Shown: positions 7,672 to 36,767 of the stretch, piece after piece
Position numbering within the stretch: position 1 is the stretch's first letter
Layout of the letters: every line of letters starts with the position of its first letter
Origin: Candidatus Saccharimonadales bacterium
Lineage (GTDB): Bacteria; Patescibacteriota; Saccharimonadia; Saccharimonadales; EFPC-124
NCBI GenBank assembly: GCA_035280845.1
Contig: DATEFB010000002.1
Location: 61,183-125,182, forward strand
Reading direction: 5' to 3'
DNA: 64,000 nucleotides
Translations under genes and position numbers: made by a program
The notes under the pieces: generated by a model
The model's input: only the letters and a program-made list of their open reading frames with translations
Told to the model about the DNA's origin: nothing
Databases searched by the model: none

Positions 7672-7767
7672 AACTCTTTCCTCCTTACTGTTTTCACTAT
7701 ACTTTTTACTGGCAAGTAGTGCATTGATCTGGGTCGGCGGTTGTTTGTGATGAGGCGCAAGGTCGGG

Positions 7768-8274: not shown

Positions 8275-8340
8275 CTCCTACCTACAGCTTAAATAAGTGT
8301 GGGTAGCGACGCAGTGATTTGTGTCACGTGAGTGCCGTGA

Positions 8341-8988: not shown

Positions 8989-9067
8989 GGGCTCATTTCT
9001 GACTATAGGCTGTTATGCGCGAGGGGACAATACCTGATATGTCCGCTCGTCCAGGCAGCCTTGTTCG

Positions 9068-10120
9068 CTATCGGGTCACGCTTTTTACAAACGAGACGGT
9101 GGCATCCAGCGCCTTCTTCCCGTCTTCCGTATCCAGATTGAACTGGTACTCGTGGGGTAGCGACGGTTGGTGCGAATCTTCGTAAAACAGCCTCGTCACC
9201 TTAACGCCCAACGACTCCAGCTTATCTGCCAGCGGCATGGACTGCACTTTTGTAAGCGGGTCGCCATTGCCGCCGGTTATGTAGGTGGCCGGAAACGCCT
9301 TGGTAACATGGTAATACGCCGACATCTGCGAAAGGGTGGCCGCGGCAGTAAAGTCACGTGTCCCAAGGTACGCCCAAACGCTGACGTCATCGCCCCAACC
9401 GACTATTTTAGGCAGGGTAGGGTCTGGGTGAATGAGCTCTTCCATCTTATAAATGCCGCAGTTGAGCACGACGCCCTTTAATTGCGCCGGGGTGAGTTTT
9501 GGTGCAATGCCCACGCCACTGGCGTAACCGGGGTTGGTAATAAGCGCGGCCATCTGGCTGGAGAGTTGCGAGCCGGCAGAATCGCCCGCCAGCACAATCT
9601 TGCTGGTATCTGCATGAAGCCTGTCGGCGTTGGCCTGAACGTACGTGTACGCGTCGTTTAACTGGTGAACTGCCGTAGGATACGTTTTTTCAGGCCCGAG
9701 CGAGTAGCCAACCGAGATCACTACGAACCCTTCTGCCGCAAGCAGCTTGTAGTAGGTGGCGTAATTGTTTTTGCTGCCAGAGATCCAGGCGCCGCCGTGC
9801 GTCCAGATAACAACTGGTAGTTTTGCGGTTGTGTCCTTTGCAGTGGCTGGGAAGTAAACGTCTAGAAACGCGTCGGGGTCATTGCTGCGGTATTGTTGGT
9901 TGGTTATGGCATCCACCGCCACAGCAGGCTGATGCTTCTGAAGGGCTGTCGTTGCCTTGGTGGCATCCTGCCCAAAGACGTACCGGATGACCATCGCTCC
10001 TGGCCATGGGCTCAATTTAAAGGCGAGCAGCGTAATGATAATGATGCCCGCCACAGCGCCACTGGACCACAGGAATAGTTTTTTACGGTAGAAAGGCTGG
10101 TGTTTTGTTTGTTTTTTCAA
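9068..10120 (-). CDS. Alpha/beta hydrolase (esterase/lipase, HGG class) with an N-terminal membrane anchor
   Basis: 350 aa with the HGGAW oxyanion motif, the GDSAG nucleophile elbow and an N-terminal TM helix. Confidence 0.9.
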   Translation of the reverse strand: MKKQTKHQPFYRKKLFLWSSGAVAGIIIITLLAFKLSPWPGAMVIRYVFGQDATKATTALQKHQPAVAVDAITNQQYRSNDPDAFLDVYFPATAKDTTAKLPVVIWTHGGAWISGSKNNYATYYKLLAAEGFVVISVGYSLGPEKTYPTAVHQLNDAYTYVQANADRLHADTSKIVLAGDSAGSQLSSQMAALITNPGYASGVGIAPKLTPAQLKGVVLNCGIYKMEELIHPDPTLPKIVGWGDDVSVWAYLGTRDFTAAATLSQMSAYYHVTKAFPATYITGGNGDPLTKVQSMPLADKLESLGVKVTRLFYEDSHQPSLPHEYQFNLDTEDGKKALDATVSFVKSVTR

Positions 10121-14100: not shown

Positions 14101-17100
14101 CTAACGAGCCTGTACTTGGATGATTCCGAAGCGGGGGTCCGCGACAGCGTCACCATTTAAGCCGACTACGCGCAGGTATACGTCGCCCTTGGCACCGGCC
14201 GCAATGTTCGACCAGCTGCTCACCTTTAGGCCGGTTGTACTGACGTTGTGACCAAGGCCGGTGTTACCGCTGTCTAGGTAGTTCCATGTTGCCTGGTCTG
14301 TGGAGTACTGTATGCGCACTTCGGCGCTCGCTGAGCCGGCGGTTGAAATTGATACTTGGAAGCGAATCTGCTGCGCATCTGTCAAATCATATTGCATGCG
14401 GGATGATGCAACAGGGACATCGGTTGGTGTAAAGATTTCGGTTAATGCGGCCGGCATGTTGGTCCATTGGGCCGAGGCACCATTACCATTACCACCATAA
14501 ATGGATAGGCTGGCATTGAACCCGAGGCAGTTCTTCCAGGCACCGTTCTCGTAACAGCGGAATTTGTTGCTGTTGCTGTTGTAGTACATACCACCTGTGG
14601 CACCCGTTGGGTCACCAGAGGTGTTTTTGGTGTCGAGTACAAGCAAGGCGCCCGTCGCATCGGCGGTGGGGTTGCCGATGTAGACGTACGAGTTTGTGGT
14701 ATCAGCCACCAGAATCGGTGTGCCGGCGGCGTTTACGACGCTAAAGGCACCGGTCGTGTTGTTTGAGGTGGTGACGGTGAGAACATTATTTACCGAGGCG
14801 CCGCCATTAAAGACAGCATTGCCGCTCACGTTCACGGTACCAGCGATAATGGTGTTCCCGGCTGTTAATTGGCCACCGCTACCGCCTTCGGCAAGCGTCT
14901 CGCCACCCAGGCCCACTAGGTCGAGTGATGCACCAACTTTGACACGGGTACCACTTGTGTAATACACGGTGTTGCGCTCGTCGGTGGCATCGTTACCGCC
15001 AATGTAGTATACATAGCCGTTTACATTCAGCGAACCGCCACCGCCGCGGAGTGCTGGTAGATAGCTAGTATCGACAGTCCATGTCCCGACTGACCCATCG
15101 GCGTTTAGTGGTGCGTAACGAGTTTCGTCGGTGTAGCCAGAGCCGCTGTTGGTGTTGCCACCAAGGACGTATATGTAGCCGTTCATAACGAAGGTGCGGC
15201 CCAATGCTCGGTATGCAAAGCCCGGAGCGGTGTTAGTAACAGCGGTTGCTAGGCTGCCATCGGCGTTAAACCTGCCGTAGTATAGAGTGTTTTGGCCGGC
15301 GCCTGTATTGGTTGCCTTGCCGCCAATCACGTAGAAGTATCCGTTGGCAATCGCCCACGCAAAGCTGGCGCGGTTACCCGGAATCCAATCGCTTTGCGTG
15401 GTAAAGGTGCCTAGTGTACCATCGGCGTTAATTTTGGCACGACTAACGTCATTGCTGTGTGCAACCACTGCCGCTGTGCTGTCTAAGCCGCCCGCAATGT
15501 ACAGATAGCCGTTGTGGGCAAACATAGCACCATCTCGCAGGTCGTCTGGAAGTTGCGTCGATATAGTTGTCCATGAGCTCACTACACCATCATTGCCTGG
15601 TTTACCAACATAAATGTCGTCGGATGTAGCCGCACTCGATGTGCCACCAGCCACATAAATGTAGCCGTTGTACGTGGCGGCCATAGCATCACAGCTTGTA
15701 GCTGGCATGGTAGCCGATGTACTGGCCCAGGCGCCTGTTGTGCCATCTGCGTTTAGGCGAGTATGTTGTACGGAGTTTGTGTTTGCATTGGTGATGCTGC
15801 AGCCAGTGATTACATACATATAGCCGTTCAGGTAAATGGTCGAGTTGTGCGCACCACTACGAGCGGTGATAGTGTCGCTCTCGGTTGCAAATTCGTCGAC
15901 ATGACCGGTATTGCTGCCCAAGAGTGAGGTAAAGCCTTTTGCGCTGAAGTCGCCTAATACCGATACGCCGTCGCGCAACATTGTATTACCGCTCACGTTT
16001 AATGTACCCATGATGTTGGTGTTGCCGGCTGTGAGGGCGCCACCACTTCCGCCCTCGGCTGCGTTGCCATTGGTTAGGCCAACTAGGTCAAGCCCGCCAC
16101 CAATCCGCACGCGTGAACCGGTGTTGTACCATGCTGTGTTTGTAGCTGCGCTGCCGCTATAGCCTCCTACTGCGTATATATGGCTGTTGTAGGTAAGAGC
16201 GTTAAAGTTGGATCGGTTGGCTGGCAAGGTTGTGGTGTCAGTCTGCCAGGCACCCAGGGTGCCATCGGCATTTAACTTGGCATAGTACACGGTGTTTGTA
16301 GCAGTGCTGTCGTTTTCGCCGCCAATGGCGTACAGGTAGCCATTCATAACGCCTGCGCCCAACCACGCTTTAACGGCGGGCAGAGGGCTGGTGGTAGTGC
16401 CCGGGTTGGTGACTGAACCGTCGGCATTTATTTTGCCATAGTACACATTGGTATCGTACGGCGGACCGGCGACGCCGCCGATAGCGTAGAAGTAGCCATT
16501 AGCGATCACTATGCCGGCAGAGCGATGCGTACTGCCGCTGAACCAGTTACAACCACAGTTGCCTTCGCCAATCGAGCCGTCGGCATTTATCTTGTGGTAG
16601 TAGATGCTTGGGTTGTTCATGTTCGTTTCGTACATGTAGCCGTTGTATGCAGTAATAGTAGTTTCGTCGTTGTCGTTCATAAGGATATTGGCAGTCTTCC
16701 ATTCAGTGATGGTGCCATCGACGTTTGGTTTGGCGTAGTACAGGTAGGCATTATCTGGGTCGCCAAAACCACCACCACCGTGTACGTAAATGTAACCGTT
16801 AAAGCTGGTGACTGTACCAGGCATACAAGTGGCGTTTGGAATAGTGGCAGTGGTGCCCCACGATCCAATACTGCCATCGGCGTTCAGTTTGGCATAGTAC
16901 GACGTCGTAGTGCGGGTGTCGGTGCTATCGCAGCCACCAAGGTTGTATATGTACCCGTTGACAATAGTTTGCCCCGAGCCGTACCGTGCGCTCGGCAGCG
17001 TGTCTGCGTCGGCAGTGAATGCTCCAACATGACCAGTATTGTTGCCGAGCAGATCTATTAGCGAATCGACGGTATTAACATTCATGAGGTCACCATTAGT

Positions 17101-20100
17101 GCTGTTAAGGACGCGGAAGGCTGTAGTGCTGTCGGTGCTGCTTTTGGCGATAATGCTGGCCGCCGAGTTGTTGGTAGAGAGGGTTAGGTTGCCTGTGCCG
17201 GCTTGGATGGTTGTTGCGCTGGTTGTATTGGTCGAGCCGATAGTCAAAGCCTGTGCAGCTGCGCCCGTTGCGATGTTTACGGTACGGGCCTGGGCGCCCG
17301 AGCCAATGTTGATTGCGCCTGTGCCAGAGTTCAGGCTAATGGCCGTGTTTGTGCCGTTGCCCACGGTTACGGCGCTGGCGTTGGTGGTGCCTAGGAAGAC
17401 GGTGCCGGTTGCTACGCTGGCCGTACCAACATCTACCAATACGTTGCCCGACGTACCTGACGTAGCGTTACCACTGGTGATAACCACGCCGCCAGTGTTA
17501 CCGCTGGTCGTTGAATCACCGCTGCGGACGTTGGCTGTGCCCGATGTGCTGGTTGCGCCGCTGACGTTACCACTTGCCAGCGTTGCGAAGTTCGAGTTAG
17601 TGCTTGCTGCAGTCTGGCTGTTGCTCGAGAATACACCGCCAGCAGTTATGATGACACCGGTCGATTGTACGCGGAACATAAAGTTGCCTACGCTGTCGAC
17701 GCCCTCGTAAAAGTTAGCGTTCCAGGTCGGAGAAAAGCCCTTTACCTGTATCCCAACGCGGCTGTCGTTGGTCGGCGTCACTTGCAGCTGGCCAGTAATG
17801 TTGTCTGCTGCTGTTTGGCTGTAGGCACCAATCGCTACTTTGCGTGCGCTGGCATCGACACGGAAGATTGGCGAGGTCGCTGCGTTTTGGATTTCGAAGG
17901 CCAGGTTGCCGTCGGTGCGGTTTTTGAATGTTGTGGCGCCTTCGTCGGCAATGTTCAGGACATCTGCGGCAGTGGCGGTGCCGTCAGTCACACGGAAGAG
18001 TGGTTCGGCCACAGTTGAGCTGACATGCAGCTTGGCAGCGGGCGCGTTTGTGCCAACGCCTACGCGGCTGGTACTTCCCTGTACGAACAGTGCGTTTACG
18101 TCGGCATCGCCCTCAACCCTAAAGTCGGTGGCCTCGGAGTTTTCGTTGAAGACAATCTGACCGCCAACCGAGCCGTCGATTAAGTGGCGGGTCGTGCCGT
18201 TTGCGCTCTCGCGGAACTGCCAGATTTTAATTGCCTGGGTGATTTCGTTACCGTTCTCCATGACTAACTTAACGCGCTGGGTGCCGGTCAGGTCGCCATT
18301 ATCAAACACGCTGAAGAATAGCTTCGCGCCAGCTGCGTCAAAGTCGAGGTCGCCACCGCTGGTGCGAAAGCGGTATTGCTTGGTCGCGGTGTCGGCGTCG
18401 CGGACGTTAAGGTTGCCATTCACCGTGAGGGCATTGTCAGGAGCGGCAGTGTTAACACCAATGCGGTTGTTGGTGGTGTCGGCCAGGAAGACGGTGCTGG
18501 TGCCGGCAGCGTTTAGGATGCGGAAGGCGGCGGTGCTGTTAGTGCTGTTTTGGAATAATGCCTGCCCGGTGGTGTTTACCTGTGCCAGTAAGGTTGACCC
18601 GTTGCCCACTTTAAGTGGTTGGTCTGGGAAGAGGTTGCCGATCGAGACGAAGTTGTCGTTGATTTTTAGGCCGTTTGTTCCCACGGTCTCAATGCGGAAG
18701 TAATCGTTGGTACTGTCCCATTGCAGGAAGCCGTTTTGGCCACCGGCGGTAGAGTCACCAAGAATCAGGCGTGGGTTGCCGCCGTTGTTATAGACAGCTG
18801 CATCTCCGCCCAAGACTTCGAACTTCGAGAAGCTGGCCGTGCCACCAATGCCTACGCGACCGTTTGTGCTGTCGGCGTTAAGAAGGGTTGATGTGCCGGC
18901 TTGATCCAATATGCGGAAGGCGTTTATGCTGTCGGTGCTGTTCTGGAAGGTCGCTGCGCCTATGGTCGAGAAGGTAGCGATTGATGTGCCGTTTGTCTCG
19001 AGCTCTAGTGCAAAGGCATCATTGGTGCCCAGGACGGCTGTTGCGCCAAAGCTATTGCCGCCCTGCACGAATGCCGCACCGGAGCCTGTGCTAAAGCCAC
19101 AGTTTGCGGCATTGCGCATACATACCGTGCCCGATTCGTCACCGAAGGTTATGACATTGGCGGCAGTCGGGTCCGTGATGGCGAAGGATGTCTCGAAACC
19201 ATCGGCGGTAGTGCCTTCGAAGACAAGTGGCGTGCCACCCTGTATGACACCCATAAAGCTAATCAGATCCGCCGCGGCGTTGCCGAGTGTAACATTGCCA
19301 TTTGCGGCCAGTGCCTCGGTAATAGACAGGCCGCCGCCATTAGTGGTGGTGAGTCCACTGCGCCCAATTGTAATGGCGCTGGCATTTGTGGTGCCTACGC
19401 TCAGCGCGCCGTTTGTGCCGCTGCCAGTCTTAGAGCCAGAATCAATGGTGACGTTGCCGCTTGACGAGTTGGTGCCAACGCCATTACCCGTAACAAGGTA
19501 GAGTGTACCAGTCGTTCCACCGGTGCCGCCAGCAATCGAACCGGTGTTTATGAGTACGTCGCCCGAGCTGCCACTGCCGCCGGTCACGTTGCCACTTCGG
19601 AGGGTGAAGCTGTTTGTGTTTCCGCCGGTTGTCTTGTCATTTGTCTGGACGGTTGCGTTCGAGTTTGAGCCGTTCCACGTAAAGCCTACGATGCCATTTT
19701 CGTCTGGGCTAAAGACGGCCAGGCTTGGCTGATGCACGCCAGGGCGGGCATCAAAGATAGACAGTCCGCGCGCAGTGTTTTGGGCCGATGCCTCAAGGCC
19801 AAGCGCCATGATTTGACCGAAGCTGCCTGGATCCATGTTCTGGATGCTGAACTTGGCGGCAACGTTTGCGCCAACTGGCGTAGCGTACGAGTCTAGGTCG
19901 CCAGTCCCGCTTATGCGGATCGCACCCTGCACTTGCAGCCCGGCGTTACTGATGACTGGTGTGTTGTTCGCGCCCAGGTTGATGCCCACCCGTGAGTTTG
20001 TGGAGTCAACGGTGAACAGGTTGCCACCGGCAGCCGTCTTAACATTGAACGCGGCTGTAGAGTTGGCGCTGTTCTGGAAGAGTGCTGCGCCACCTGCTGG

Positions 20101-23100
20101 CGAAATGCGGAAGACATCGACTGCGTCGTCTTGAATAGCGAAGCGGCCGTTTGTGCTGCACGAGGTGTCACATTCCAGATTAATCAGGAAGTTTGAATCT
20201 GTTGCAGTGTCTGCCATGGTAATTGCAATGTCGCGGGCGTCGGTTGCGGCGATGGTGTTGCCGCCGTTATAGGCACCTTGCAGTGTGACTGCGCCGCTGG
20301 TGGTAATACAATCTTTCCAGGCGCCGTTTTCGTAGCAGCGGAACTTGGCGGCCGTTGCGTTGTAGTACATGGATCCGTCGGTGCCGCTTGGGTCACCTGC
20401 GTTCAGCTTGGTATCGAGGATCAGCAGGTGGCCGTCGTTGTCTGAATCGTACCCAATCTGCACCGAAGTGTCGTCTGCAAACAGTGACGATGTGCCGCCG
20501 GTTGTGTTGACCTTGAAGTAGCCAAACGAACCTTGCAGGTTCAGGTCGAGGCGGCCGTTCTGGCCGTCGATCTGCATAATGTCGGTCGCGCCGTTCTTGA
20601 ATGTGAATCCAAAGACGCTGTTAAAGTCGAGGTTCAAACCGCCAGCGGTCAGCAGCAAATCACCTGCGCTGGTAATGTCACCGCCGTTCACAGCAATGTC
20701 GCCAGCAGTAACAATGTTACCTGTTGCGCCAGTCACGTCAAAGTTGGTGAAATCAAGGTTGGCTGTGGTGCCGGCAATGGTGTTGTCGGCGACGCTCAGC
20801 GCAGTTACGATTTCGGCGTCAGTCAAATCAACAGCGGTCTGGATGGTGCCTGCTGCCGAGCTGATCTGTAAGGCGGTTGTTACCGCGGTGTCTACGTCGG
20901 CGTTGTCGAGCACTAACAGCTGGTCGGTTAGGCCGCTACCACCAATATTCTGGATTAACTGACCGCGCTGCGTGCCGCCTGTAGTGTTGTTGGTAACGCC
21001 AATGTAGTTCAGGGTCAGGGCGTTGGTGCCAGTGACCGTGTTGGTGAGCTCCAGATTCTCGGTGTCTGCCAGGTTCATATCGACGTCAGTATTGAACGTC
21101 GCCACACCGTTAAATACCGCTGTGGTTGCGAACGTCGTGGCGTCCTGTATGTCCAGGATGTCAGCGCCGTTAATAACGATGTCGTTACCGGCACCCGAAC
21201 TTGCAATCGTCATTGCACCAGTGCCAGTTATATTGCCGATATTTACCAGGTTGCCCGTGTTGTCTACGCGGTCCACACTGTTAGTCTGCAATGTGCCGCC
21301 GCTGGAGTTGATGTTTCCAGTTGCTGTTGCGGTACCGGTGGTGCTCGTGCCGGTTGCGCTGACAGCAAAGTATGTTGTGCCGCCAGCGTTGTTCTGGACT
21401 TCGAGCAAGTTAGCTCCCAGGGCGCTTGAGGCATCGCGAATGGTGAGGGCACCGCGAGTTGCGTCCAGGGTTAACTCTGGGTTTGTGGAGTTGTTGTAGG
21501 CGCTTTGAAGGGTGACTCCAGCGCCCGCACAGTTTCCGCTGCTGGTACAAACGGTATATGTGCCAGCAGTTAAAGCAGGAAGGTTAAGGGTTGTGTTAGC
21601 AGTCGGCGTTGTAAAGCCGAGGGTAGTAGTGAACGATCCGGAGGTGCCAGCCAATGTGCTGGTGCTGGCGCCCTGCAGGCTCCAGTTGCCAGAGACTGCG
21701 TTAATGGTCACGCCGCCGCCACCTTTTATGGTAGTGACGCTGGATGCACCGGTATTGCCAACAGTAACAGTTTGAGCCTGGTTGCCACCACTGGTGTCGC
21801 CGATGGTTATTGTGCGGGCAATGTTACTGCCGCGGCCGATGTTGATTGTCGTGGTGTTCTGGTCGCCCAGCGCTACTAGCCCTGCCCCGCCGGTCTGGAG
21901 AGCCAATGTGCTGGTGCCCGCGGCCGAGACCGTAAGGTTGCCGCTGCTTGTTGACCAGGTAGAGCCACCGCCCGCAGTAAGGGTAAGTGATCCGTTGCTT
22001 GTTACTGAACCGGTGCCATTCGATGCGAGCGAGAACGTACCGGTGCTTTGGTTCAAGTTACCGGTAACAGTGGTGTTCTCGTTCAGGGCGATTGCCGTTG
22101 CCGTGCCACCCAATGTCAGTGTGCCCGCAGCGGCTGTGTCGAGCAATGGCGCCAGGAACGAGGTGTTTGCCCGGCCCGTGCCGCTAATTCGGAAGTTGGC
22201 TGTGGTCTGGTCGATGCTGTTCTGGTTCTGGATGTAGTTGGCGCTGCCGCTAGTCGGGGCGAAACCACAGGCCGTGCTGCTTTGGATACACACCGTGCCA
22301 GCCTCGTCAGCAAAGGTTACGGTGCGGTTTGCGCCCAAGGCAGCGGTCTGCAGAAGTACGGTGTTGCTGCTGGCGTCCGACAGGGTAATGGTTCCGGCTT
22401 GAGTGGTTGTGCCGAGGTTGAGCGCTCCACCTTGAACATCCACATCACCCCCAGTTACAATATCGCCAGTTTGGGCGACCTGGAAGGCGCCAACGGTTAA
22501 GAACCCACCCGTGACATCCAGGCTGCCGGCAACGGTTGTGTCCTGGTTTAGGTTGATGGCGGTCGCATTGGTCGTGCCAATGTTGAGTGTGCCAGCGCTG
22601 GCAGTATCCAGAAGTGGAGTTTGCAAGGCGGTTGTGGCGGCGAGTGTGCCAGTGACGGTTACGATGCTGCCAGACTCACTTAGTAACGAGTCGCCGATAG
22701 CGTTGCTGCCAGTGAATTTAGCAATCCGGCCAGTGGTGCCACCAGCAGTAGTAACACCACCGCCAACACCCGCACAGTTACCTACTGTCGTACAAATGTC
22801 ATACGTGCCAGCTGCAGCGGTCAGTAAGCGGTAGGTGACGTTGGCTGTTGGCGTCTGGAAGGCTAGCGATGTTGTACTGCCGGCGTTGGTGGCAGTTATG
22901 GTGCTGGCGGCTGCACCCTGCAGGGTGAAGTTTTGGGTTGTAATGCCCACCGTCAGCGCACCAGTCGGCGAGATGGTATTGGCTGTTAGCGTGCCCGTAA
23001 CCGTTGCGCCACCATTTAAGTTAGCGGCCCCGGCGACGGCCAACGTTCCCGTAAGGCTTGCAGTACTGCTAATAGTTTGGCCGTTCACCGTGCCAGTTAC

Positions 23101-26100
23101 AGTCATGTTGCCGGCAGGTGTTACAGCAAGGCGGCTGGTGCCGTTCAGTTGAATGTCTATCAGGTTGCCAGTTGCTGCCACGTTTGTATTGTTAACGGTC
23201 AGCATAGCAGCACTTGCCTGGCTACTGCTTAAGGTCAGCTGGCCAAAGGTTGGTGCGGCGGTTGTGTTGATGTTCTGGATAGTGTTAATAACCCCAACGC
23301 TGGCGCTGAAGTTGGTGCTGTTAAATTGGGCGATACCTTTCTGGCTCGTACTGGCGTCGTCAATAGTAACAGTGGTGCCCACGCCTGTTGCGTTGGCGAG
23401 GGTCAATGCGCCGGTCAATCCATTCAGACTGTCGACTGCGCCAACGCCACCACCACCGCCACCACTGGTGACACAGGTTGCGCAGGTAATGTTACCTGCC
23501 GCGTCAATCGCAAGCGGGCCGCTCGCACTCACCGCGACTGTGCCTGTTGCGTTTGGCAGGGTGATCGTTTTGTTGCTGCCGCTTGGCGTGGCAAATACCA
23601 GGCTGTTGGTGATGCCGCCATCGGTTTCGCTAATAGTTGTGTCAGCGCCTTGCAGGGTCAGGTCCTGGCTGGTCGAGCCGATTGTCATGGCTGCGGCAGG
23701 AGTAATGGTGTTAACGGCCAAAGTGCCGCCAACGGTGATTGTGCTGCCGCTTTCGGTGATGATCGAATCAACAATAGTGCCACTGCCGCTGAACTTAGCG
23801 ATTGCGCCCGTAGTTCCGCCAGGAGTCGTAACGCCACCGCCCACACCAGAACAGTTGCCAACAGTGGTACATATGTCGTACGTGCCCGCGGCAGCGGTCA
23901 GTAAGCGGTAAGTGACATTGGCTGTTGGCGTCTGGAAGCTCACGGTTGTTGTATTCGCGCCGCTTGTTGCCGTAATAGTGCTGCTTGCGCTGCCCTGCAC
24001 CAGGAAGCTTTGCGTTGTTGCGCCAACAGTTAATGCACCGCTTGGCGTAATGGTATTGGCGGTTAATGTGCCAGTAACAGTTGCACCACCGTTTAGGCTG
24101 GCAAGCCCGGCTACCGCCAGCGTGCCAGTCAGGTTTGCGGCGCTACTAACGGTTTGGCCGTTCACCGTGCCAGTCAGGGTCATGTTGCCAGCAGGAGTGA
24201 CTGCTAGGCGGCTCGTACCATTCAGCTGAACGTCTAACAGGTTACCGGTCGCGCCAGCGTTGGTGTTGTTGACCAACAGCATGCCGTTGCTGGCCTGGCT
24301 GCTGGTGAGCGTTAGGCGGCCAAAGGTTGGGGCGCTGGCAACGGCAATATCCTGAATGGTGTTGATGGTGCCGCTCGCTGCCGAGAAGTTGGTGCTGTTG
24401 AACTGGGCAATACCTTTTTGGCTGGTGCTGGCGTCCTGGATGGTTATGGTGCTACCTACGCCGCTGGCGTTGGCAATGCTGAGTGCGCCTGTTAACCCGT
24501 TCAGGCTCGTCACACCAGATCCGGTCAAGGCACAGGTAGGACAGGCGATGTTGCCAGCTGCATCCAGGGTGATTGGACCGCTGGCGCTCACGGCAATTGT
24601 GCCGGTGGCGTTTGGCACAGTGATGGTTTTATTGCTGCCACTTGGTGTCGCGAATGTCAGGTTGTTGGTGATGCCGCCGTTCGTTGCCGTGAGGCTGGTT
24701 GTCGCGCCTTGCAGAAGCAGGTTCTGGCCAGTTGCGCCAATGGTCAGTGCGCCAGTTGGAGTAATGGTGTTTACAGCCAACACGCCGCCAACGCTTACTG
24801 TAGTGCCGTTGTCGGATATGATTGAGTCAACAATTGTGTTTGCTGCGCTGAACTTAGCCAACTGGTTGGTTGTGCCACCAGGAGAAGTGACGCCGCCGCC
24901 AACACCTGCACAGTTGCCTACAGATGTACAAATGTCGTACGCGCCAGCCGCAGCCGTGAGCAAACGGTAGGTGACGTTGGCTGTTGGGCTTTGGAAGCTC
25001 AGGCTGGTGGTACTTGCGCCGTTGGTGGCGCTAAAGGTGCTACTGGCGTTGCCCTGCAGGCTGAGACTTTGACCAGTTGCCCCAACGGTCATGGCGCCAG
25101 TCGGTGTAATAGTGTTGGCAGTCAGGGTGCCAGTAACCGTTGCACCACCGTTTAAGTTGGCAGCGCCCGCAACAGCAAGCGTGCCAGTCAGGTTTGCGGC
25201 GCTGCTAATAGTCTGGCCGTTCAATGTACCGGTTAATGTCATGTTGCCGGCGGGAGTAACGGCTAAACGGCTTGTGCTATTCAATTGCAGGTCAATCAGG
25301 TTACCAGTACCGCTGATGTTTGTGTTGTTCACTAAAAGCATTGGGCTGGTAGCCTGGCTGCTGGTCAGGGTGAGTGCGCCAAATGTGGGAGTCGCGGTGA
25401 CGTTAATGTTTTGGATGGTGTTAATGCTGCCGCTCGCTGCCGAGAAGTTTGTGCTGTTAAACTGGGCAATGCCTTTTTGGGCGGTGCTTGCATCCTGGAT
25501 GGTGATGGTACTGCCCACGCCCGTAGCGTTGGCGATACTCAGCGCACCAGTTAATCCGTTCAGGCTAGTAACTGCCGACCCCGAAGTTAAACAAGTGGCA
25601 CAGGTCAGGTTGCCTGCGGCGTCAAGGGCGAGTGGGCCGCTTGCGCTCACGGCAATTGTGCCGGTAGCGTTTGGTACGGTGATTGTCTTGTTGCCGCCGC
25701 TTGGGGTTGCGAAGGTGAGTGTATTTGTTACTCCGCCACTTGTTGCGGTCAGGCTTGTGCTGGCTCCCTGTAGGGTCAGGTTTTGTGCAATTGCGCCGAT
25801 TGTCAGTGGGCCGCTTGGCGTAATGGTGTTAACGGCTAACGCGCCAGCAATGCTGACGGTCGCGCCGTTGTCGCTGATGATCGAGTTGCCAATAGTGTTG
25901 CTGCCAGTGAATTTAGCCAGCTGGTTAGTAGTGCCGCCAGGAGTCGATACGCTGCCGCCCACGCCCACACAGTTGCCGGCGGTGGTGCAGATGTCGTATG
26001 TGCCAGCGGCAGCAGTGAGCAAGCGGTAGTTTACGTTGGCAGTTGGCGTCTGGAAGCTGACGGTAGTCGTGCTGCCGGCGTTTGTTGCCGTTAACGTGGT

Positions 26101-28008
26101 GCTGCCGTTACCCTGCAGGGTCAGGCTTTGGGCTGCGGTGCCAACAGTTAATGCTCCGCCAGGAGTAATGTTGAGCGCACCGGTGCTGGTTACGTCGCCA
26201 CCATTCACAGCTACGTCACCCGAGGCAGTAATGTTCGTTGCGACAGCCAGTGACCCGGTAAAGCTTGCGGCCGAGCTGATGGTTTGGCCATTAATTGTGC
26301 CGCTAACAGTCATGTTTCCGGCAGGAGTCAGTGCCAGGCGGCTCGCACCGTTTAGCTGAATGTCTACAAGGTTGCCAGTTGCTCCGCCGTTGGTATTATT
26401 CACCAAAAGCATTGGGTTGGTGGCTTGGCTGCTGGTTACGGTCAGACGGCCAAAGGTTGGCGTGCTGGTGACGGCAATATCCTGAATTGTGTTGATGATG
26501 CCGCTGGCCGCAGTAAAGTTAGTAGCGTTAAACTGTGCGATACCTTTTTGGGCAGTGCTGGCGTCGTTCAGGGTGATTGTTGTGCCAGAGCCTGTAGCGT
26601 TGGCGACGTTTAATGCGCCGGTTAACCCGTTGACGCTCAAGACGCTGGCACCACCAGGGCAGGCCTGGAATGCCGGGGCGCCACCAGTAGACATGAAACA
26701 AAGCCCTGAGCCACCAGCTGTAACCGCGGTGAGGGCGCCGCTGCCCTGGCCAATAACTACACCGTTGGCGGCGAGTGCTGTGGCGCCCGTGCCACCGTTG
26801 CCAACCGTTAGCGCTGTGCTAAGCGCAAGGCTGCCGGTCACGCTTAAGTCGCCATTTACAGTAACTGTTGCGCCAGTTTCGGAAAGAAGCGAGTCCTCGA
26901 TTGTCTGAACGCCGGTAAATTTGGCGATCCGGCCGGTTGTGCCACCAGAGCTCTGCACGGTACCAGTACCTGCGCCGGTGTTGCTGATGGTTATGTTGCC
27001 ATTGCCATCGTTTACAACGTTAATCCCTGCGCCGCCAGCCGCGCTTACCACGCCGCTGTTTTGCAGCTCGCCAGCGGGGGTGATGGTCAGGCCGCTCCCA
27101 ACAGTAACGTCGCCGGTGCGGCCGCCAAACGAGGTGACACCAGAGTTGGTGATTGTTGTGCCGTCTACAGCAATGCCGGGGCCGCCGACAAACGTCACGT
27201 TGCCGGTCTGGCCCTGCACAGTCAGGACGCCGTTGTTAGTAATCTGGCCGTTCGCACCGCTTAAGCCCTGGCCCAGGGTGATTGTGCCGCTGAAGCCACC
27301 AATGTTCTGTACGACGCTGCTGGTGTCGCTGATCGGCACGAACTTGCTGCCGTTAAAGTACGACATCTGGTTTGTGCCTTGGTCATAGTAGATCTGGCCA
27401 CGCGCTGCGTTACTCGGCTGGGCGGATGGCGAAATAATGAATGCGCTGTTGGCACGCAGTGGGCCGTTGACTAGCAGGCTGCGGGTGCCAAGTAATGAGA
27501 CATCGCCTTCGGTGCCAAGGTCGTCCAGCGGGATCTGAACCGTGTTAAAGCGGCTCGATGTCAGCACCTGGCCCTCGTCCTTCTTGCCTAAGAAGTTCAT
27601 GGCGACGGCACTTATACCGCCAACGATCAACAGCGCAACAGCAGCAATGCCGCCGTACTTGGCGATTTTTTTCCAGTTGAAGTTGCGCTTAGGACCCCGT
27701 GGGGCAAGTGGTTTTACCACTGGCGGGGTGACTGGTGCCTGGGTGAACCCAGGCTGCGTAGCAGAAGATGATTGCAATGGTTGGACTGGTGTCGGTGCTG
27801 CAGCAATTATTGGTTGGGCTGGCGTGGGTGCTGACAGAGGTGTCGGCGCGCTGACGGGCTGATTGCTGACAGGAAGAGGCTGCGCCACCGCAAGGTTGGG
27901 CACAGATGTTGGAATCACTTGGCCAAAGCTTACGGACGCAGACTGCTGCGCTGTATCGCTAGAACCAGAGTTTCCAGGTACTCGAACGTCCTGAAATTTA
28001 TCGTCCAT
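14101..28008 (-). CDS. Giant (4,635-aa) signal-anchored surface protein; putative adhesin or fibre
   Basis: A single uninterrupted 13,908-nt ORF. It has a Pro/Ala/Gln-rich N-terminal ~115 aa and one TM helix (KYGGIAAVALLIVGGISAVAMNFL, nt ~27590-27680). The remaining ~4,500 aa are rich in Thr/Gly/Asn/Ala/Ser/Val and include four ~357-aa repeats, two Kelch-type propellers, and a C-terminal ~130-aa domain. Confidence 0.95.
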   Translation of the reverse strand: MDDKFQDVRVPGNSGSSDTAQQSASVSFGQVIPTSVPNLAVAQPLPVSNQPVSAPTPLSAPTPAQPIIAAAPTPVQPLQSSSATQPGFTQAPVTPPVVKPLAPRGPKRNFNWKKIAKYGGIAAVALLIVGGISAVAMNFLGKKDEGQVLTSSRFNTVQIPLDDLGTEGDVSLLGTRSLLVNGPLRANSAFIISPSAQPSNAARGQIYYDQGTNQMSYFNGSKFVPISDTSSVVQNIGGFSGTITLGQGLSGANGQITNNGVLTVQGQTGNVTFVGGPGIAVDGTTITNSGVTSFGGRTGDVTVGSGLTITPAGELQNSGVVSAAGGAGINVVNDGNGNITISNTGAGTGTVQSSGGTTGRIAKFTGVQTIEDSLLSETGATVTVNGDLSVTGSLALSTALTVGNGGTGATALAANGVVIGQGSGALTAVTAGGSGLCFMSTGGAPAFQACPGGASVLSVNGLTGALNVANATGSGTTITLNDASTAQKGIAQFNATNFTAASGIINTIQDIAVTSTPTFGRLTVTSSQATNPMLLVNNTNGGATGNLVDIQLNGASRLALTPAGNMTVSGTINGQTISSAASFTGSLAVATNITASGDVAVNGGDVTSTGALNITPGGALTVGTAAQSLTLQGNGSTTLTATNAGSTTTVSFQTPTANVNYRLLTAAAGTYDICTTAGNCVGVGGSVSTPGGTTNQLAKFTGSNTIGNSIISDNGATVSIAGALAVNTITPSGPLTIGAIAQNLTLQGASTSLTATSGGVTNTLTFATPSGGNKTITVPNATGTIAVSASGPLALDAAGNLTCATCLTSGSAVTSLNGLTGALSIANATGVGSTITIQDASTAQKGIAQFNSTNFSAASGSINTIQNINVTATPTFGALTLTSSQATSPMLLVNNTNISGTGNLIDLQLNSTSRLAVTPAGNMTLTGTLNGQTISSAANLTGTLAVAGAANLNGGATVTGTLTANTITPTGAMTVGATGQSLSLQGNASSTFSATNGASTTSLSFQSPTANVTYRLLTAAAGAYDICTSVGNCAGVGGGVTSPGGTTNQLAKFSAANTIVDSIISDNGTTVSVGGVLAVNTITPTGALTIGATGQNLLLQGATTSLTATNGGITNNLTFATPSGSNKTITVPNATGTIAVSASGPITLDAAGNIACPTCALTGSGVTSLNGLTGALSIANASGVGSTITIQDASTSQKGIAQFNSTNFSAASGTINTIQDIAVASAPTFGRLTLTSSQASNGMLLVNNTNAGATGNLLDVQLNGTSRLAVTPAGNMTLTGTVNGQTVSSAANLTGTLAVAGLASLNGGATVTGTLTANTITPSGALTVGATTQSFLVQGSASSTITATSGANTTTVSFQTPTANVTYRLLTAAAGTYDICTTVGNCSGVGGGVTTPGGTTGAIAKFSGSGTIVDSIITESGSTITVGGTLAVNTITPAAAMTIGSTSQDLTLQGADTTISETDGGITNSLVFATPSGSNKTITLPNATGTVAVSASGPLAIDAAGNITCATCVTSGGGGGGVGAVDSLNGLTGALTLANATGVGTTVTIDDASTSQKGIAQFNSTNFSASVGVINTIQNINTTAAPTFGQLTLSSSQASAAMLTVNNTNVAATGNLIDIQLNGTSRLAVTPAGNMTVTGTVNGQTISSTASLTGTLAVAGAANLNGGATVTGTLTANTISPTGALTVGITTQNFTLQGAAASTITATNAGSTTSLAFQTPTANVTYRLLTAAAGTYDICTTVGNCAGVGGGVTTAGGTTGRIAKFTGSNAIGDSLLSESGSIVTVTGTLAATTALQTPLLDTASAGTLNIGTTNATAINLNQDTTVAGSLDVTGGFLTVGAFQVAQTGDIVTGGDVDVQGGALNLGTTTQAGTITLSDASSNTVLLQTAALGANRTVTFADEAGTVCIQSSTACGFAPTSGSANYIQNQNSIDQTTANFRISGTGRANTSFLAPLLDTAAAGTLTLGGTATAIALNENTTVTGNLNQSTGTFSLASNGTGSVTSNGSLTLTAGGGSTWSTSSGNLTVSAAGTSTLALQTGGAGLVALGDQNTTTINIGRGSNIARTITIGDTSGGNQAQTVTVGNTGASSVTTIKGGGGVTINAVSGNWSLQGASTSTLAGTSGSFTTTLGFTTPTANTTLNLPALTAGTYTVCTSSGNCAGAGVTLQSAYNNSTNPELTLDATRGALTIRDASSALGANLLEVQNNAGGTTYFAVSATGTSTTGTATATGNINSSGGTLQTNSVDRVDNTGNLVNIGNITGTGAMTIASSGAGNDIVINGADILDIQDATTFATTAVFNGVATFNTDVDMNLADTENLELTNTVTGTNALTLNYIGVTNNTTGGTQRGQLIQNIGGSGLTDQLLVLDNADVDTAVTTALQISSAAGTIQTAVDLTDAEIVTALSVADNTIAGTTANLDFTNFDVTGATGNIVTAGDIAVNGGDITSAGDLLLTAGGLNLDFNSVFGFTFKNGATDIMQIDGQNGRLDLNLQGSFGYFKVNTTGGTSSLFADDTSVQIGYDSDNDGHLLILDTKLNAGDPSGTDGSMYYNATAAKFRCYENGAWKDCITTSGAVTLQGAYNGGNTIAATDARDIAITMADTATDSNFLINLECDTSCSTNGRFAIQDDAVDVFRISPAGGAALFQNSANSTAAFNVKTAAGGNLFTVDSTNSRVGINLGANNTPVISNAGLQVQGAIRISGTGDLDSYATPVGANVAAKFSIQNMDPGSFGQIMALGLEASAQNTARGLSIFDARPGVHQPSLAVFSPDENGIVGFTWNGSNSNATVQTNDKTTGGNTNSFTLRSGNVTGGSGSSGDVLINTGSIAGGTGGTTGTLYLVTGNGVGTNSSSGNVTIDSGSKTGSGTNGALSVGTTNASAITIGRSGLTTTNGGGLSITEALAANGNVTLGNAAADLISFMGVIQGGTPLVFEGTTADGFETSFAITDPTAANVITFGDESGTVCMRNAANCGFSTGSGAAFVQGGNSFGATAVLGTNDAFALELETNGTSIATFSTIGAATFQNSTDSINAFRILDQAGTSTLLNADSTNGRVGIGGTASFSKFEVLGGDAAVYNNGGNPRLILGDSTAGGQNGFLQWDSTNDYFRIETVGTNGLKINDNFVSIGNLFPDQPLKVGNGSTLLAQVNTTGQALFQNSTNSTAAFRILNAAGTSTVFLADTTNNRIGVNTAAPDNALTVNGNLNVRDADTATKQYRFRTSGGDLDFDAAGAKLFFSVFDNGDLTGTQRVKLVMENGNEITQAIKIWQFRESANGTTRHLIDGSVGGQIVFNENSEATDFRVEGDADVNALFVQGSTSRVGVGTNAPAAKLHVSSTVAEPLFRVTDGTATAADVLNIADEGATTFKNRTDGNLAFEIQNAATSPIFRVDASARKVAIGAYSQTAADNITGQLQVTPTNDSRVGIQVKGFSPTWNANFYEGVDSVGNFMFRVQSTGVIITAGGVFSSNSQTAASTNSNFATLASGNVSGATSTSGTANVRSGDSTTSGNTGGVVITSGNATSGTSGNVLVDVGTASVATGTVFLGTTNASAVTVGNGTNTAISLNSGTGAINIGSGAQARTVNIATGAAAQALTIGSTNTTSATTIQAGTGNLTLSTNNSAASIIAKSSTDSTTAFRVLNSTNGDLMNVNTVDSLIDLLGNNTGHVGAFTADADTLPSARYGSGQTIVNGYIYNLGGCDSTDTRTTTSYYAKLNADGSIGSWGTTATIPNATCMPGTVTSFNGYIYVHGGGGFGDPDNAYLYYAKPNVDGTITEWKTANILMNDNDETTITAYNGYMYETNMNNPSIYYHKINADGSIGEGNCGCNWFSGSTHRSAGIVIANGYFYAIGGVAGPPYDTNVYYGKINADGSVTNPGTTTSPLPAVKAWLGAGVMNGYLYAIGGENDSTATNTVYYAKLNADGTLGAWQTDTTTLPANRSNFNALTYNSHIYAVGGYSGSAATNTAWYNTGSRVRIGGGLDLVGLTNGNAAEGGSGGALTAGNTNIMGTLNVSGNTMLRDGVSVLGDFSAKGFTSLLGSNTGHVDEFATESDTITARSGAHNSTIYLNGYMYVITGCSITNANTNSVQHTRLNADGTTGAWASTSATMPATSCDAMAATYNGYIYVAGGTSSAATSDDIYVGKPGNDGVVSSWTTISTQLPDDLRDGAMFAHNGYLYIAGGLDSTAAVVAHSNDVSRAKINADGTLGTFTTQSDWIPGNRASFAWAIANGYFYVIGGKATNTGAGQNTLYYGRFNADGSLATAVTNTAPGFAYRALGRTFVMNGYIYVLGGNTNSGSGYTDETRYAPLNADGSVGTWTVDTSYLPALRGGGGSLNVNGYVYYIGGNDATDERNTVYYTSGTRVKVGASLDLVGLGGETLAEGGSGGQLTAGNTIIAGTVNVSGNAVFNGGASVNNVLTVTTSNNTTGAFSVVNAAGTPILVADTTNSYVYIGNPTADATGALLVLDTKNTSGDPTGATGGMYYNSNSNKFRCYENGAWKNCLGFNASLSIYGGNGNGASAQWTNMPAALTEIFTPTDVPVASSRMQYDLTDAQQIRFQVSISTAGSASAEVRIQYSTDQATWNYLDSGNTGLGHNVSTTGLKVSSWSNIAAGAKGDVYLRVVGLNGDAVADPRFGIIQVQAR
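14950..17020 (-). repeat. Duplicated ~340-aa module in the giant gene: a Kelch-type beta-propeller plus a G(A/G)SLDLVGL...AEGGSGG..TAGNT linker
   Basis: There are two sets of about six blades, each with NGY(I/M/F/L)Y..GG....YYAK(L/I)NADG(S/T). The sets lie at about nt 16120-17020 and 14950-15880. Each is followed by LDLVGL..AEGGSGG(A/Q)LTAGNT..G(T)(L/V)NVSGN. Confidence 0.8.
22650..26640 (-). repeat. Four tandem coding repeats of ~1.06-1.08 kb (353-359 aa) inside the giant gene
   Basis: The units begin at the S(L/V)NGLTGAL codons at nt 26637, 25566, 24507 and 23430, giving spacings of 1071, 1059 and 1077 nt. The fourth unit diverges after ~250 aa. The repeats are also visible as periodic antisense ORFs in the track (22835, 23912, ~24990, 26036). 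Confidence 0.9.
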
Positions 28009-34038: not shown

Positions 34039-35571
34039 TCAGGGCGCAATTGCAATGTCGTCGCCCAGGTGTTTTTTGAGCCTCGCGGCAATCCCGCCGG
34101 GTTGGCGCTGTAGGATCTCCGAGAGTTTTGCTAGGCCAGCGCCATCCTTATGATGCTTAAGTAATAGTTCATCGTCGGTTTTCTTCCAGGGTTTAAATGC
34201 GTTTGGGTAGGTCTCGCGCATTTTCGCTATCTTTTGAGCCCAGTCCGACGCTGCCTTTTCTTTTTTGGGCTGAGCAGCTTCTTTTTTGGCGCGTTCTGCA
34301 GCTTTTTCTTCCAGGTGCTGCAGACGTTCGTGGTCTTTTTTGGATCGCGCCTGCAATAGTTCATTGATTTCGAGCGCGTCGCGGCTGACCTGCAGTGCCA
34401 TGCGGTTAATGCCAATCAGGCTTAGCGCGTCGAGTCGTTTGACGCGGCTGAGCGCTACGTACCCCATGCCCTCTACGAATGCTTTCCGAAGGTCAATGCG
34501 CGCGGCATCGAGCGTCATACCCTGGCTTTTGTGCACGGTAATTGCCCAAGCTAAACGGAGCGGCAGCTGGGTGAGGCTGGCACGCTTTTTATCGCCGTCG
34601 CGGAGTTCCCAGACTTCGGGCGTCACAACAACGGTGCGGCCATTGCGCAGCTCGACAACTGGGTAGCGCGTGCCTTCATCGAAATCTTTCACAATGCCCA
34701 AGCTGCCGTTTACATAGCGTTTGTCCTGGCTGTTTTTTATGCACATGACAAGGGCGCCTTTTTTTAGCACCAACTCTTCGGGTGCCAGGCACGAGCGTTT
34801 CAGTGTTGCGACATAGTTTTCTTTGCCGGTGGTTTGCATGGTGTATACGCAGGCATCGGCGTCGAGTTTTTGCAGTGCCTGCTCGTTAATGCGGTCAACG
34901 TCAATGTTTACGGTATGTAATTCCGTAACTTCCTGGCCACCCGACAAATCAGCGCCGATGCGCTCAAGCAGTGCTTCAGCATGGCGGCGACGGACGTCAC
35001 CCCCACGGATTGCGGTCAGAATCTCCAGGAAGTTGTCATCGTTTTGGCGGTGCTGTTCACTCAAATAACAAATGACAGGGTCGAGGCGCTCCCAGCTGTT
35101 GCTGTGCACAACAAACCCGCCTTCACGGCTGTCGCTGCGGTTTACAGGCGGGAGCTGAAAAAAGTCACCGCACAAAATAACCTGGATGCCGCCAAAAGGT
35201 TTGTCGTTGCGGCGGAGCTTGCGGGCGACTTCCTCTACCATATCGAGGCGGTAGTCGTGTAGCATTGAAATTTCGTCGATAATAAGGACGTCGGTTTTTT
35301 CGATGATATCGCGCCGACCCTTTGGCAGGTCTTTCCAAAAATGGTCGGGCAGCTCGTCGTGGATGCCAATGCCACTCCAGGCATGGATGGTGCTGCCACC
35401 TAGGTGGCTTGCAGCCAGGCCGGTCGTTGCCGTTACTGCGACAACTTTGCCATCATCTTTGGCGCATTTAATAAACTCATTTAAAACATAAGTTTTGCCT
35501 GCTCCGGCCTGGCCGGTCAGTAAAACGCTATGCCCCTCCAGCATAATCTCTAAAGCTAATGCTTGCTTCAC
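34039..35571 (-). CDS. PIF1/RecD-family ATP-dependent DNA helicase with a C-terminal HTH-like tail
   Basis: 510 aa with Walker A GQAGAGKTY, Walker B IIDEISML, and the motifs ITVHKSQG and YVALSRV. Confidence 0.9.
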   Translation of the reverse strand: MKQALALEIMLEGHSVLLTGQAGAGKTYVLNEFIKCAKDDGKVVAVTATTGLAASHLGGSTIHAWSGIGIHDELPDHFWKDLPKGRRDIIEKTDVLIIDEISMLHDYRLDMVEEVARKLRRNDKPFGGIQVILCGDFFQLPPVNRSDSREGGFVVHSNSWERLDPVICYLSEQHRQNDDNFLEILTAIRGGDVRRRHAEALLERIGADLSGGQEVTELHTVNIDVDRINEQALQKLDADACVYTMQTTGKENYVATLKRSCLAPEELVLKKGALVMCIKNSQDKRYVNGSLGIVKDFDEGTRYPVVELRNGRTVVVTPEVWELRDGDKKRASLTQLPLRLAWAITVHKSQGMTLDAARIDLRKAFVEGMGYVALSRVKRLDALSLIGINRMALQVSRDALEINELLQARSKKDHERLQHLEEKAAERAKKEAAQPKKEKAASDWAQKIAKMRETYPNAFKPWKKTDDELLLKHHKDGAGLAKLSEILQRQPGGIAARLKKHLGDDIAIAP

Positions 35572-35750: not shown

Positions 35751-36206
35751 TTATAGTATAGCAAATAATGCTAACGTTCCTAGTCCGGTTAGTACGATTG
35801 AAAGCACGCAGTACCGCCAGCGCTGTGTGTTCAGGGCGGAGTTGACGTGGATCGCGTCTTTTGTGTCGGAAATAAGCTGCAGGACAAGAGTGTCTTGGTC
35901 GTAGCCAAGGTATTCAGGGTGTTCGTCCAGGTCGATGCTGGCGCCACTGTAGGCCCGCGGCCAGATTGCCATAATGTTCAGCAGCAGCGACAGGATATAC
36001 GGCAATATAACCAACGTAATCTGCACCCAGCTGTGCGGTTGTAGTGCCGCTTGGCCCAGAAAAAGCAGCAGTGCCACGTTGGTTGCCAGCATGGCCAGGG
36101 CTTTTGTATCAATGCTGTCGCTGTTATCGAACGTCAGCATTAATTGGTTCTGCTGGGTGTTCAGCAGAGGCTCAAGGTTATTCAGATCGTTTTTTACTTC
36201 GGCCAT
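35751..36206 (-). CDS. Hypothetical 3-TM membrane protein (weak resemblance to Pycsar/SLATT-type TM effector domains)
   Basis: 151 aa. A DxxDTKA motif (DSIDTKALAMLATNVALLLFLG) precedes the first TM helix, and two further TM helices follow. Confidence 0.55.
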   Translation of the reverse strand: MAEVKNDLNNLEPLLNTQQNQLMLTFDNSDSIDTKALAMLATNVALLLFLGQAALQPHSWVQITLVILPYILSLLLNIMAIWPRAYSGASIDLDEHPEYLGYDQDTLVLQLISDTKDAIHVNSALNTQRWRYCVLSIVLTGLGTLALFAIL

Positions 36207-36227: not shown

Positions 36228-36767
36228 TTAGGCGCCAGGTTTTATGTTACGCAGGACTTGCTGGGCCGTTTCTTGCGGCGTCAGGTGGGTTGTATTAATG
36301 GTGATGCTTTTTTCACCAGGAAGCGGGCTGTCAAAATCGTAGCCGTCGAGCATTGGCTGCAAAATTGCGGGGTCAGTGATTTTTGCAGTGCCTACGCGTG
36401 ATGCGTCGATTGTTCGCTCAAGCAGCACCCGTTTTTTAGCTCGCAGGTGAATAAGGTGCAGTTCAACGGTGTGGGTTTGGGCCGCCTCTTGCATTGTTTG
36501 CAAAAACGCAACATCAGCCTGCGAACTGACCGTGAACGTAAAAGGAAAGATCACATCCTGCCGACTGTAACGCATAGCCGCATTTAAAATCTGAAGCTGC
36601 AAGCTATACGAAAGGGTCACGAGCTCGGCGTCATTGCTAATGACCGGGCTGATGAGCTCGACCACTTTATGGTTATCGAAGACGTGCGTATTGCCAGCTT
36701 TCGCCAGCTCGCGCGCCACGGTGAGTTTGCCGACTGCGGGAGGTCCGTATAAAACAATGCATTTCAT
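36228..36767 (-). CDS. P-loop NTPase / small-molecule kinase-like protein
   Basis: I trimmed the 430-aa track ORF to the ATG at 36767, giving MKCIVLYGPPAVGKLTVARELA (Walker A). The upstream 250 codons are Ser/Ala/Arg-rich and antisense to the next gene. Confidence 0.65.
   Translation of the reverse strand: MKCIVLYGPPAVGKLTVARELAKAGNTHVFDNHKVVELISPVISNDAELVTLSYSLQLQILNAAMRYSRQDVIFPFTFTVSSQADVAFLQTMQEAAQTHTVELHLIHLRAKKRVLLERTIDASRVGTAKITDPAILQPMLDGYDFDSPLPGEKSITINTTHLTPQETAQQVLRNIKPGA

Follow-up and report, generated by a model that had tools for sequence, protein, structure and literature searches.

Giant surface proteins that carry tandem repeats, and in which the number of repeats depends on the lineage, are already well known. 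In Gram-positive bacteria, they include the alpha C and Rib proteins of group B Streptococcus, SasG/Aap of Staphylococcus, and Bap, in which tandem in-frame repeats serve as a stalk and vary in number among lineages through unequal recombination; the DNA of these repeats is near-identical, and their number differs between strains or during infection. A second class consists of LapA, SiiE, and MpIBP, giant RTX adhesins secreted via the type 1 route, multi-thousand-residue proteins in which a long beta-rich array of extender domains projects distal ligand-binding domains. Here we analyze a 64,000-nucleotide stretch of contig DATEFB010000002.1 from a Candidatus Saccharimonadales bacterium (hereinafter, the window), which encompasses a giant gene with a tandem array of units of about 353 amino acids (aa). 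We propose, with moderate confidence, that these units are the extender (stalk) array of a giant, modular, membrane-anchored surface fiber or adhesin, and that the number of units evolves by rare unequal recombination.

The units depart from the Gram-positive repeats in their DNA divergence (26–29%), in their far larger size, and in falling outside the Pfam repeat families; furthermore, the window protein appears to be anchored by an N-terminal hydrophobic helix, and inspection by eye revealed no sortase motif. Unlike LapA, SiiE, and MpIBP, it belongs to a patescibacterium, is predicted to be held by an N-terminal membrane helix, and contains no BIg, cadherin-type, RTX, or other domains related to type 1 secretion that would be detectable with Pfam. 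When the units themselves were compared with the known extender and repeat domains of adhesins in Pfam and NCBIfam (BIg, cadherin-like, FN3, Rib, G5, and RTX, among others), no significant match was obtained. The yeast adhesin Epa1 (PMC7199969) offers a comparable arrangement, in which repeats separate the binding domain from the anchor and their copy number governs the display of that domain at the surface; that system differs in being eukaryotic and in having short Ser/Thr-rich repeats, a glycosylphosphatidylinositol/cell-wall anchor, and a repeat number that varies between strains. Phage tail fibers (T4 gp34, lambda gpJ, and the triple-stranded beta-helix of HylP) are similarly beta-rich, rich in Thr, Gly, Ser, and Asn, and equipped with swappable distal modules, but the window protein shows no significant sequence or structure match to them and is encoded by a chromosomal gene beside the atp operon, with a predicted membrane anchor.

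Among Patescibacteria, proteins of very large size that contain transmembrane or signal sequences have been described in Absconditicoccaceae (PMC13059738) and as Southlakia adhesins (PMC10633639), in organisms with a presumably similar lifestyle, and a role in host recognition and attachment has been proposed for them (PMC13059738, PMC10633639). These proteins contain recognizable FN3, VCBS, dockerin, and Ca-stabilized adhesin repeats, whereas the window unit matches none of these. Very large proteins of Patescibacteria are preferentially targeted to the surface (PMC13059738), and epibiotic growth of a saccharibacterium depends on several surface adhesins (PMC10633639); we take this literature as context for the surface-fiber interpretation. 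Neither the ~353-aa unit nor the family of atp-linked Saccharimonadales proteins in which it occurs appears to have been described in the libraries and literature searched.

Anatomy of the repeat array

The units are delineated by the motif S[LV]NGLTGAL, which occurs at aa 458, 815, 1168, and 1527 of the giant protein, that is, at nt 26637, 25566, 24507, and 23430 on the minus strand. These starts, along with the spacings of 1071, 1059, and 1077 nt, all multiples of 3, were given in the original prediction, and a motif scan reproduced them exactly. In a search for DNA repeats, the array emerged as families of 300-nt blocks, each with four copies at these spacings and 69–76% identity; Tandem Repeats Finder, with a longest period of 500, missed it. 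Four end-to-end units had been proposed; the first three are complete, whereas the fourth is conserved over ~270 aa, to about nt 22621, and diverges thereafter, so that the array amounts to three complete units and ~0.75 of a unit. The YDICTxxGNC cysteine pair is present in all four units, as predicted (Cys 674/680, 1027/1033, 1380/1386, and 1739/1745), but the C(A/P)TC pair that had been expected near the end of each unit is found in units 1–3 only (Cys 803/806, 1156/1159, and 1509/1512). Each unit, in turn, contains a duplication of an ~80-aa “NTITP...C..C” module (“LTANTITPTGA...SFQSP,” 60% identity over 47 aa, E = 9e-16). A hidden Markov model (HMM) profile of the unit, built from alignment A1, scored 549–628 bits against the four window units.

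Divergence and age of the units

In pairwise comparisons, units 1–3 are 72–77% identical at the protein level and 71–74% identical at the DNA level; with unit 4, they share about 61–68% and 66–69% identity, respectively. On the measure used for the controls (matches over the longer length), the identity between units is 63.5–73%, compared with 53.4 ± 0.7% for codon-shuffled units and no more than 56% for other 1,059-nt segments of the giant gene. Because the similarity exceeds both the shuffled and the same-gene controls, the repeat is real.

The similarity is, however, that of old duplicates. Between units, the nonsynonymous divergence (dN) is 0.15–0.24 and the synonymous divergence (dS) is 1.1–1.8, which amounts to saturation, with dN/dS of about 0.1–0.19. 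Third codon positions are 43–51% identical, and at residues that are conserved between units, 50% of the codons are identical versus 40% expected from the codon usage of the giant gene. For pairs of units, the longest stretch of perfectly matching DNA is 17–26 nt, and no segment along the unit stands out for raised synonymous identity (the maximum is 62% identical codons). Given the saturated dS, the low dN/dS, and the shortness of the exact matches, the units are old paralogs maintained by purifying selection, and nothing points to recent duplication or gene conversion. RecA-dependent exchange requires a perfectly identical stretch of at least ~25 bp and declines steeply as divergence grows; therefore, recombination between units that differ to this extent should be rare. 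The suggestion that the repeats are similar enough for homologous recombination is not supported by these measurements.

Orthology of the units and history of the array

The history of the array is illuminated by comparison with protein P0014, encoded at locus L029, which is syntenic with the window on both flanks of the giant gene; the atpD genes of the two genomes share 83% DNA identity. Over aa 1–3600, P0014 and the window protein are collinear (56–87% identity); beyond this, P0014 has no Kelch region, and its C-terminus is different. In a neighbor-joining tree of 32 units (200 bootstraps), window unit 1 groups with P0014 unit 1 (bootstrap 100), unit 2 with P0014 units 2 and 3 (76), unit 3 with P0014 unit 4 and unit 2 of protein P0015 (88), and unit 4 with P0014 unit 6 (100). 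Unit 3 and P0014 unit 4 share 88% amino acid identity, and the tail of unit 4 that cannot be aligned with units 1–3 is 64–98% identical, in sliding windows, to the corresponding stretch of P0014 unit 6. As judged from this phylogeny, the units have kept position-by-position orthology with those of the related genome, and one-to-one orthology that persists despite 83% DNA identity of atpD implies that the array has been stable for a long time.

The remaining units of the tree point to changes in unit number. P0014 units 2 and 3 join each other (bootstrap 68–71), as do P0015 units 3 and 4 (100), whereas P0014 unit 5, which groups with P0015 unit 5 (98), lacks a window counterpart. From this topology, no fewer than three distinct events can be deduced: a duplication in the lineage of P0014, because its units 2 and 3 pair with each other; a duplication in the P0015 lineage; and a loss in the window lineage, because the units represented by P0014 unit 5 and P0015 unit 5 are missing there. 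The junction between window units 3 and 4 might preserve a footprint of such an event. The GGGGGGVGAVD linker in which unit 3 ends and the first ~30 codons of unit 4 resemble P0014 unit 5, and the remainder of unit 4 resembles unit 6; over the first 60 nt compared, 46 positions match P0014 unit 5 versus 32 that match unit 6, mostly within the linker. This pattern is suggestive, although not decisive, of window unit 4 being a hybrid produced by an in-register unequal crossover within the block of the unit that is most conserved.

Between atpC and the P0014 gene, L029 contains a second, tandem paralogous giant gene (1414–9813; 2,799 aa, four units). Since this paralog occupies the place of what is a 174-nt gap between atpC and the giant gene in the window, the atp-linked locus gains or loses whole genes as well. 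An origin of the window gene by fusion of the two L029 paralogs was rejected: the window protein aligns collinearly with paralog B across aa 1–3600, and paralog A matches it only through the shared units.

An atp-linked family in Saccharimonadales

An identical giant protein is encoded on the 213-kb contig k141_683110 of ENA ERZ27257114, directly downstream of the F-ATPase genes atpA-atpG-atpD-atpC. In at least 15 related loci (L001, L002, L004–L006, L009, L010, L013, L018–L020, L029, L030, L032, and L034), atpD is located directly upstream of a homolog; given this shared place next to atpD, the homologs are positional counterparts. An exhaustive profile search yielded 558 representative proteins at E ≤ 1e-3, nearly all of them 1,000–4,900 aa long; a word-indexed search with one unit had returned 13 fragments only and missed the giant protein, low-complexity words saturating the candidates. 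Nearly all named sources of the homologs are genomes of Candidatus Saccharimonadales/Saccharibacteria. A few contigs with family members (L023, L025, L014, and L012) are binned as Gammaproteobacteria, “Candidatus Acidoferrum,” or Parcubacteria, and are probably mis-binned Saccharimonadales contigs. Even in distant homologs, QKGIAxFN, Y-x-C-x3-G-N-C, and GGTT..AKF are invariant.

Among the best 150 of the 558 proteins, 46 contain one near-complete unit, 9 contain two, and 3 contain three; four and five units were found in a single protein each, and six units in two proteins. Shortened units that lack profile positions 64–147 occur in many other proteins of the family. In all, the analysis recovered about 285 copies of the unit. 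The comparison of repeat numbers among related genomes that the original prediction had called for could be carried out at the atp locus, where the count ranges from one to six and does not track the identity of AtpD to that of the window: one unit in L006 (88%) and L004 (82%), at least two in L005 (84%; the contig ends there), three in L030 (82%) and L002 (75%), four in the window itself, five in L001 (79%) and L032 (77%), and six in L029, the P0014 locus (94%). Gain and loss of units, proposed as a source of variation in fiber length, are therefore borne out between lineages, whereas variation between cells finds no support in the divergence and preserved orthology of the units. With respect to close strains, no contig that spans the giant gene was recovered from a conspecific: when the giant protein and AtpD were looked up as exact proteins, the source contig plus one other were obtained. 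The other contig, with an identical AtpD, is a 4.3-kb contig from the Joint Genome Institute (JGI) that ends before the giant gene, and a scan of JGI metagenomes for close relatives of the giant protein returned nothing above 66% identity.

Domain architecture of the giant protein

The giant protein is dominated by small and polar residues (Thr 15%, Gly 14%, Ala 12%, Ser 9%, Asn 9%), and the repeat unit is likewise rich in these five. In a Kyte-Doolittle scan of the whole protein, 19-aa windows above 1.6 start only at aa 114–124, and a Pro-rich N-terminal tail precedes the corresponding helix; we infer that this helix is a membrane anchor and that the remainder of the protein is extracellular, at the cell surface. 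The helix is followed by a conserved neck, the 3.75 tandem units, and further beta-rich modules (Table 1). The pre-array piece, with GGTTGRIAKF at aa 355, is of the same module type as the second half of the unit and gives a weak HMM match to unit positions 127–301 (34 bits for the equivalent region of P0014). The solitary NTITP module beyond the array matches unit positions 126–229 (41.6 bits) and represents a single copy of the internal sub-module of the unit, the fifth copy in repeat family D9.

The distal end consists of two Kelch propellers, the only Pfam-recognized domains of the protein, located far from the anchor and outside the repeat array, and a C-terminal domain that is swapped between members of the family. 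The Kelch matches lie at aa ~3930–4230 (PF24681, 75.7 bits with a cutoff of 50; PF01344, 37.2 bits with a cutoff of 20.1), and the DNA of the region contains nine blade repeats with ~160-nt spacing, arranged in two groups (repeat family D7). These propellers are candidate distal ligand-binding heads. The C-terminal domain is 65–77% identical to those of P0072, P0136, and P0105 and has no counterpart in P0014; both the Kelch and the C-terminal modules are closest to family members other than P0014, with up to 77% identity (P0072), which indicates that the distal modules have been exchanged within the family.

Additional short motifs recur in the protein. The motif G(S/G)MYYN....KFRCYENGAWK(D/N)C, with its own Cys pair, is present in two copies (20299–20370 and 14518–14589; aa 2547 and 4474), and the related GQIYYDQGTNQMSYFNGSKFV is found near the N-terminus, at aa ~205–225; both motifs recur at similar positions across many family members. 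Long antisense open reading frames (ORFs) on the plus strand overlap the giant gene between positions 16525 and 27388, for example, 25091–26029 (312 aa) and 23153–23911 (252 aa); most likely, these are not genes but by-products of the biased, stop-poor composition of the giant gene.

Table 1 Features of the giant gene and its protein product, with positions in the window
Feature	Positions	Strand	Details
Giant gene	14101..28008	-	One uninterrupted ORF, 4,635 aa; first gene downstream of atpC
Sole hydrophobic segment	27583..27669	-	aa 114-142, IAAVALLIVGGISAVAMNF; predicted N-terminal membrane anchor
Pre-array piece	26638..26946	-	GGTTGRIAKF-type module with Cys pair C437/C450, immediately before unit 1
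Unit 1	25567..26637	-	aa 458-814 (357 aa); HMM 605 bits; ortholog of P0014 unit 1
Unit 2	24508..25566	-	aa 815-1167 (353 aa); HMM 628 bits; groups with P0014 units 2 and 3
Unit 3	23431..24507	-	aa 1168-1526 (359 aa); HMM 625 bits; ortholog of P0014 unit 4
Unit 4, conserved part	22621..23430	-	aa 1527-1796; DICT..GNC pair, no CxTC; ortholog of P0014 unit 6
Unit 4, diverged tail	22369..22620	-	aa 1797-1880; not alignable to units 1-3
Solitary “NTITP...TYTVCTSSGNC” module	21499..21822	-	aa 2063-2170; outside the array
Two Kelch-type beta-propeller regions	14995..16964	-	aa ~3681-4338
C-terminal domain	14101..14780	-	~225 aa; preceded by GGMYYNSNSNKFRCYENGAWKNC motif

Searches for the fold and relatives of the unit

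The repeat units produced no match in Pfam, NCBIfam (0 hits), PHROGs (0 families), or the PDB sequence set. In Pfam, nothing was detected at E ≤ 1 within aa 458–1880 except for a chance-level match to DUF2922, and no family recurred when 31 units were searched separately; a single match from the PDB profile search, DevS (E = 0.009), was rejected as being at the chance level. AlphaFold2 models of unit 2, computed from 18 and 31 aligned units, were of low confidence (predicted local distance difference test, pLDDT, of 57 and 62; predicted template modeling score, pTM, of 0.30 and 0.34), all-beta, and limited to isolated beta-hairpins. Foldseek comparison of both low-confidence models with the PDB gave nothing significant (best E-values of 0.35 and 0.13; template modeling score of about 0.13). 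The top-ranked chains were trimeric phage fibers (T4 gp34, HylP), likewise non-significant at E = 0.13–0.5; these ranks are at most a hint of a tail-fiber-like fold and are not treated as evidence. A possible likeness of “ASTxQKGI” to a phage tail-fiber repeat (Pfam PF03406) was confirmed by none of the scans.

A tblastn search of the unit against 50,697 phage records produced one weak match (E = 5e-3, 54% identity over 39 aa), involving the DAST.QKGIAQF motif (unit aa 20–58). The match falls within a hypothetical protein of 768 aa (BK063671.1, 38538–40844); its gene is the second one downstream of a gene annotated as encoding a tail protein, and the virus has been assigned a host among the Methanomicrobiales.

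Role of the array and evolution of unit number

Under the stalk interpretation, the array would set the reach of the distal binding modules beyond the cell, presumably in the direction of a host cell. The number of units would change by rare in-register unequal recombination, or by replication misalignment, at the most conserved blocks, and such changes would then become fixed in lineages, without frequent switching within a population. Several considerations weigh against this interpretation. The surface location, the fiber shape, and the binding are what we infer; an epibiotic lifestyle is assumed for the window organism by analogy with relatives in culture; the fold is poorly predicted for the unit (pLDDT 57/62, with no Foldseek match below E = 0.13); and the signal of a hybrid junction comes from about 90 nt. 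In addition, the conservation of the units (dN/dS of 0.1–0.19, many invariant residues) exceeds the need of a passive spacer, and because a spacer need not be so strongly conserved, the units may have a binding role of their own.

If so, the array would be a multivalent binding device, in which each ~353-aa unit is a ligand-binding module, for instance, for a glycan, and the copy number tunes avidity rather than reach. Such a role would account for the strong purifying selection, for the many residues and motifs that are invariant across distant homologs, and for the retention of the units as separate orthologous copies. Nevertheless, no known binding domain was matched in Pfam, NCBIfam, PHROGs, or PDB, and the models contain isolated beta-hairpins rather than a pocket-forming globular fold; the recognizable binding-type domains, the Kelch propellers, are located distally instead, and many homologs function with a single unit. 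We consider this alternative to be possible but unlikely.

It is also conceivable, if more speculative and doubtful still, that the unit is a new intertwined, possibly trimeric beta-fiber, and that the family consists of chromosomal, membrane-anchored, tail-fiber-like fibers for host recognition with exchangeable modules. If this were the case, the length of the stalk (one to six units) and the distal heads, exchanged in a phage-like manner, would decide which hosts can be attached. Those Saccharibacteria that have been cultivated grow attached to bacterial hosts, and to our knowledge, the way in which they recognize these hosts is largely unexplained; the atp-linked family is a reasonable candidate for a determinant of host attachment.

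As for the evolution of unit number, the array was originally interpreted as a cassette for rapid length variation, whereby RecA/RuvABC-mediated recombination would frequently add or remove units, so that fiber length differs between cells or close strains. The repeats are indeed tandem, in frame, and in register, their number differs among related species, and a possible footprint of unequal crossover is discernible at unit 4; furthermore, recA (48376–49437), ruvC (42930–43403), ruvA (43466–44044), and ruvB (44805–45827) are present in the window, as noted in the original prediction. However, recA and ruvABC are universal housekeeping genes that add no specific support to recombination between the repeats. 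The DNA repeats of known rapidly varying proteins are near-identical, whereas here the identity is only 71–74%, the longest identical tracts are 17–26 nt, dS is saturated, and synonymous identity is nowhere locally raised; the one-to-one orthology with the P0014 genome likewise speaks of an array that has long been stable. Frequent switching thus appears very improbable, and the repeats of the array, being ancient paralogs, should not be taken for a hotspot of recombination or a device for phase variation. An assembly artefact affecting the copies or their number, a concern because the k141_ contig name suggests short-read de Bruijn assembly, for which repeats are a classic source of error, can be practically dismissed given that no exact match between units exceeds 26 nt, so that a k-mer graph would not confuse them, that the reading frame is intact over 13.9 kb, and that independent assemblies of related genomes show matching architecture at the locus.

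Other genes in the window

A 151-aa ORF (35751–36206, minus strand) shows a weak match to PycTM, a Pycsar effector-type domain (Pfam PF18967; PADLOC PDLC02364, E = 5.8e-6). It adjoins a 179-aa P-loop kinase-like ORF (36228–36767, minus strand) and a Pif1/RecD-type helicase gene (34039–35544, minus strand). No cyclase was seen beside the PycTM-like ORF, which is therefore not part of a canonical Pycsar pair.

The comEC gene (40717–42171), the yebC-ruvC-ruvA and ruvB genes (42208–45827), and recA (48376–49437) are all encoded on the plus strand within 9 kb of each other. This cluster is located about 13–21 kb from the giant gene and has no specific link to the repeats; it fits the natural competence that has been reported for Saccharibacteria (PMC10633639).

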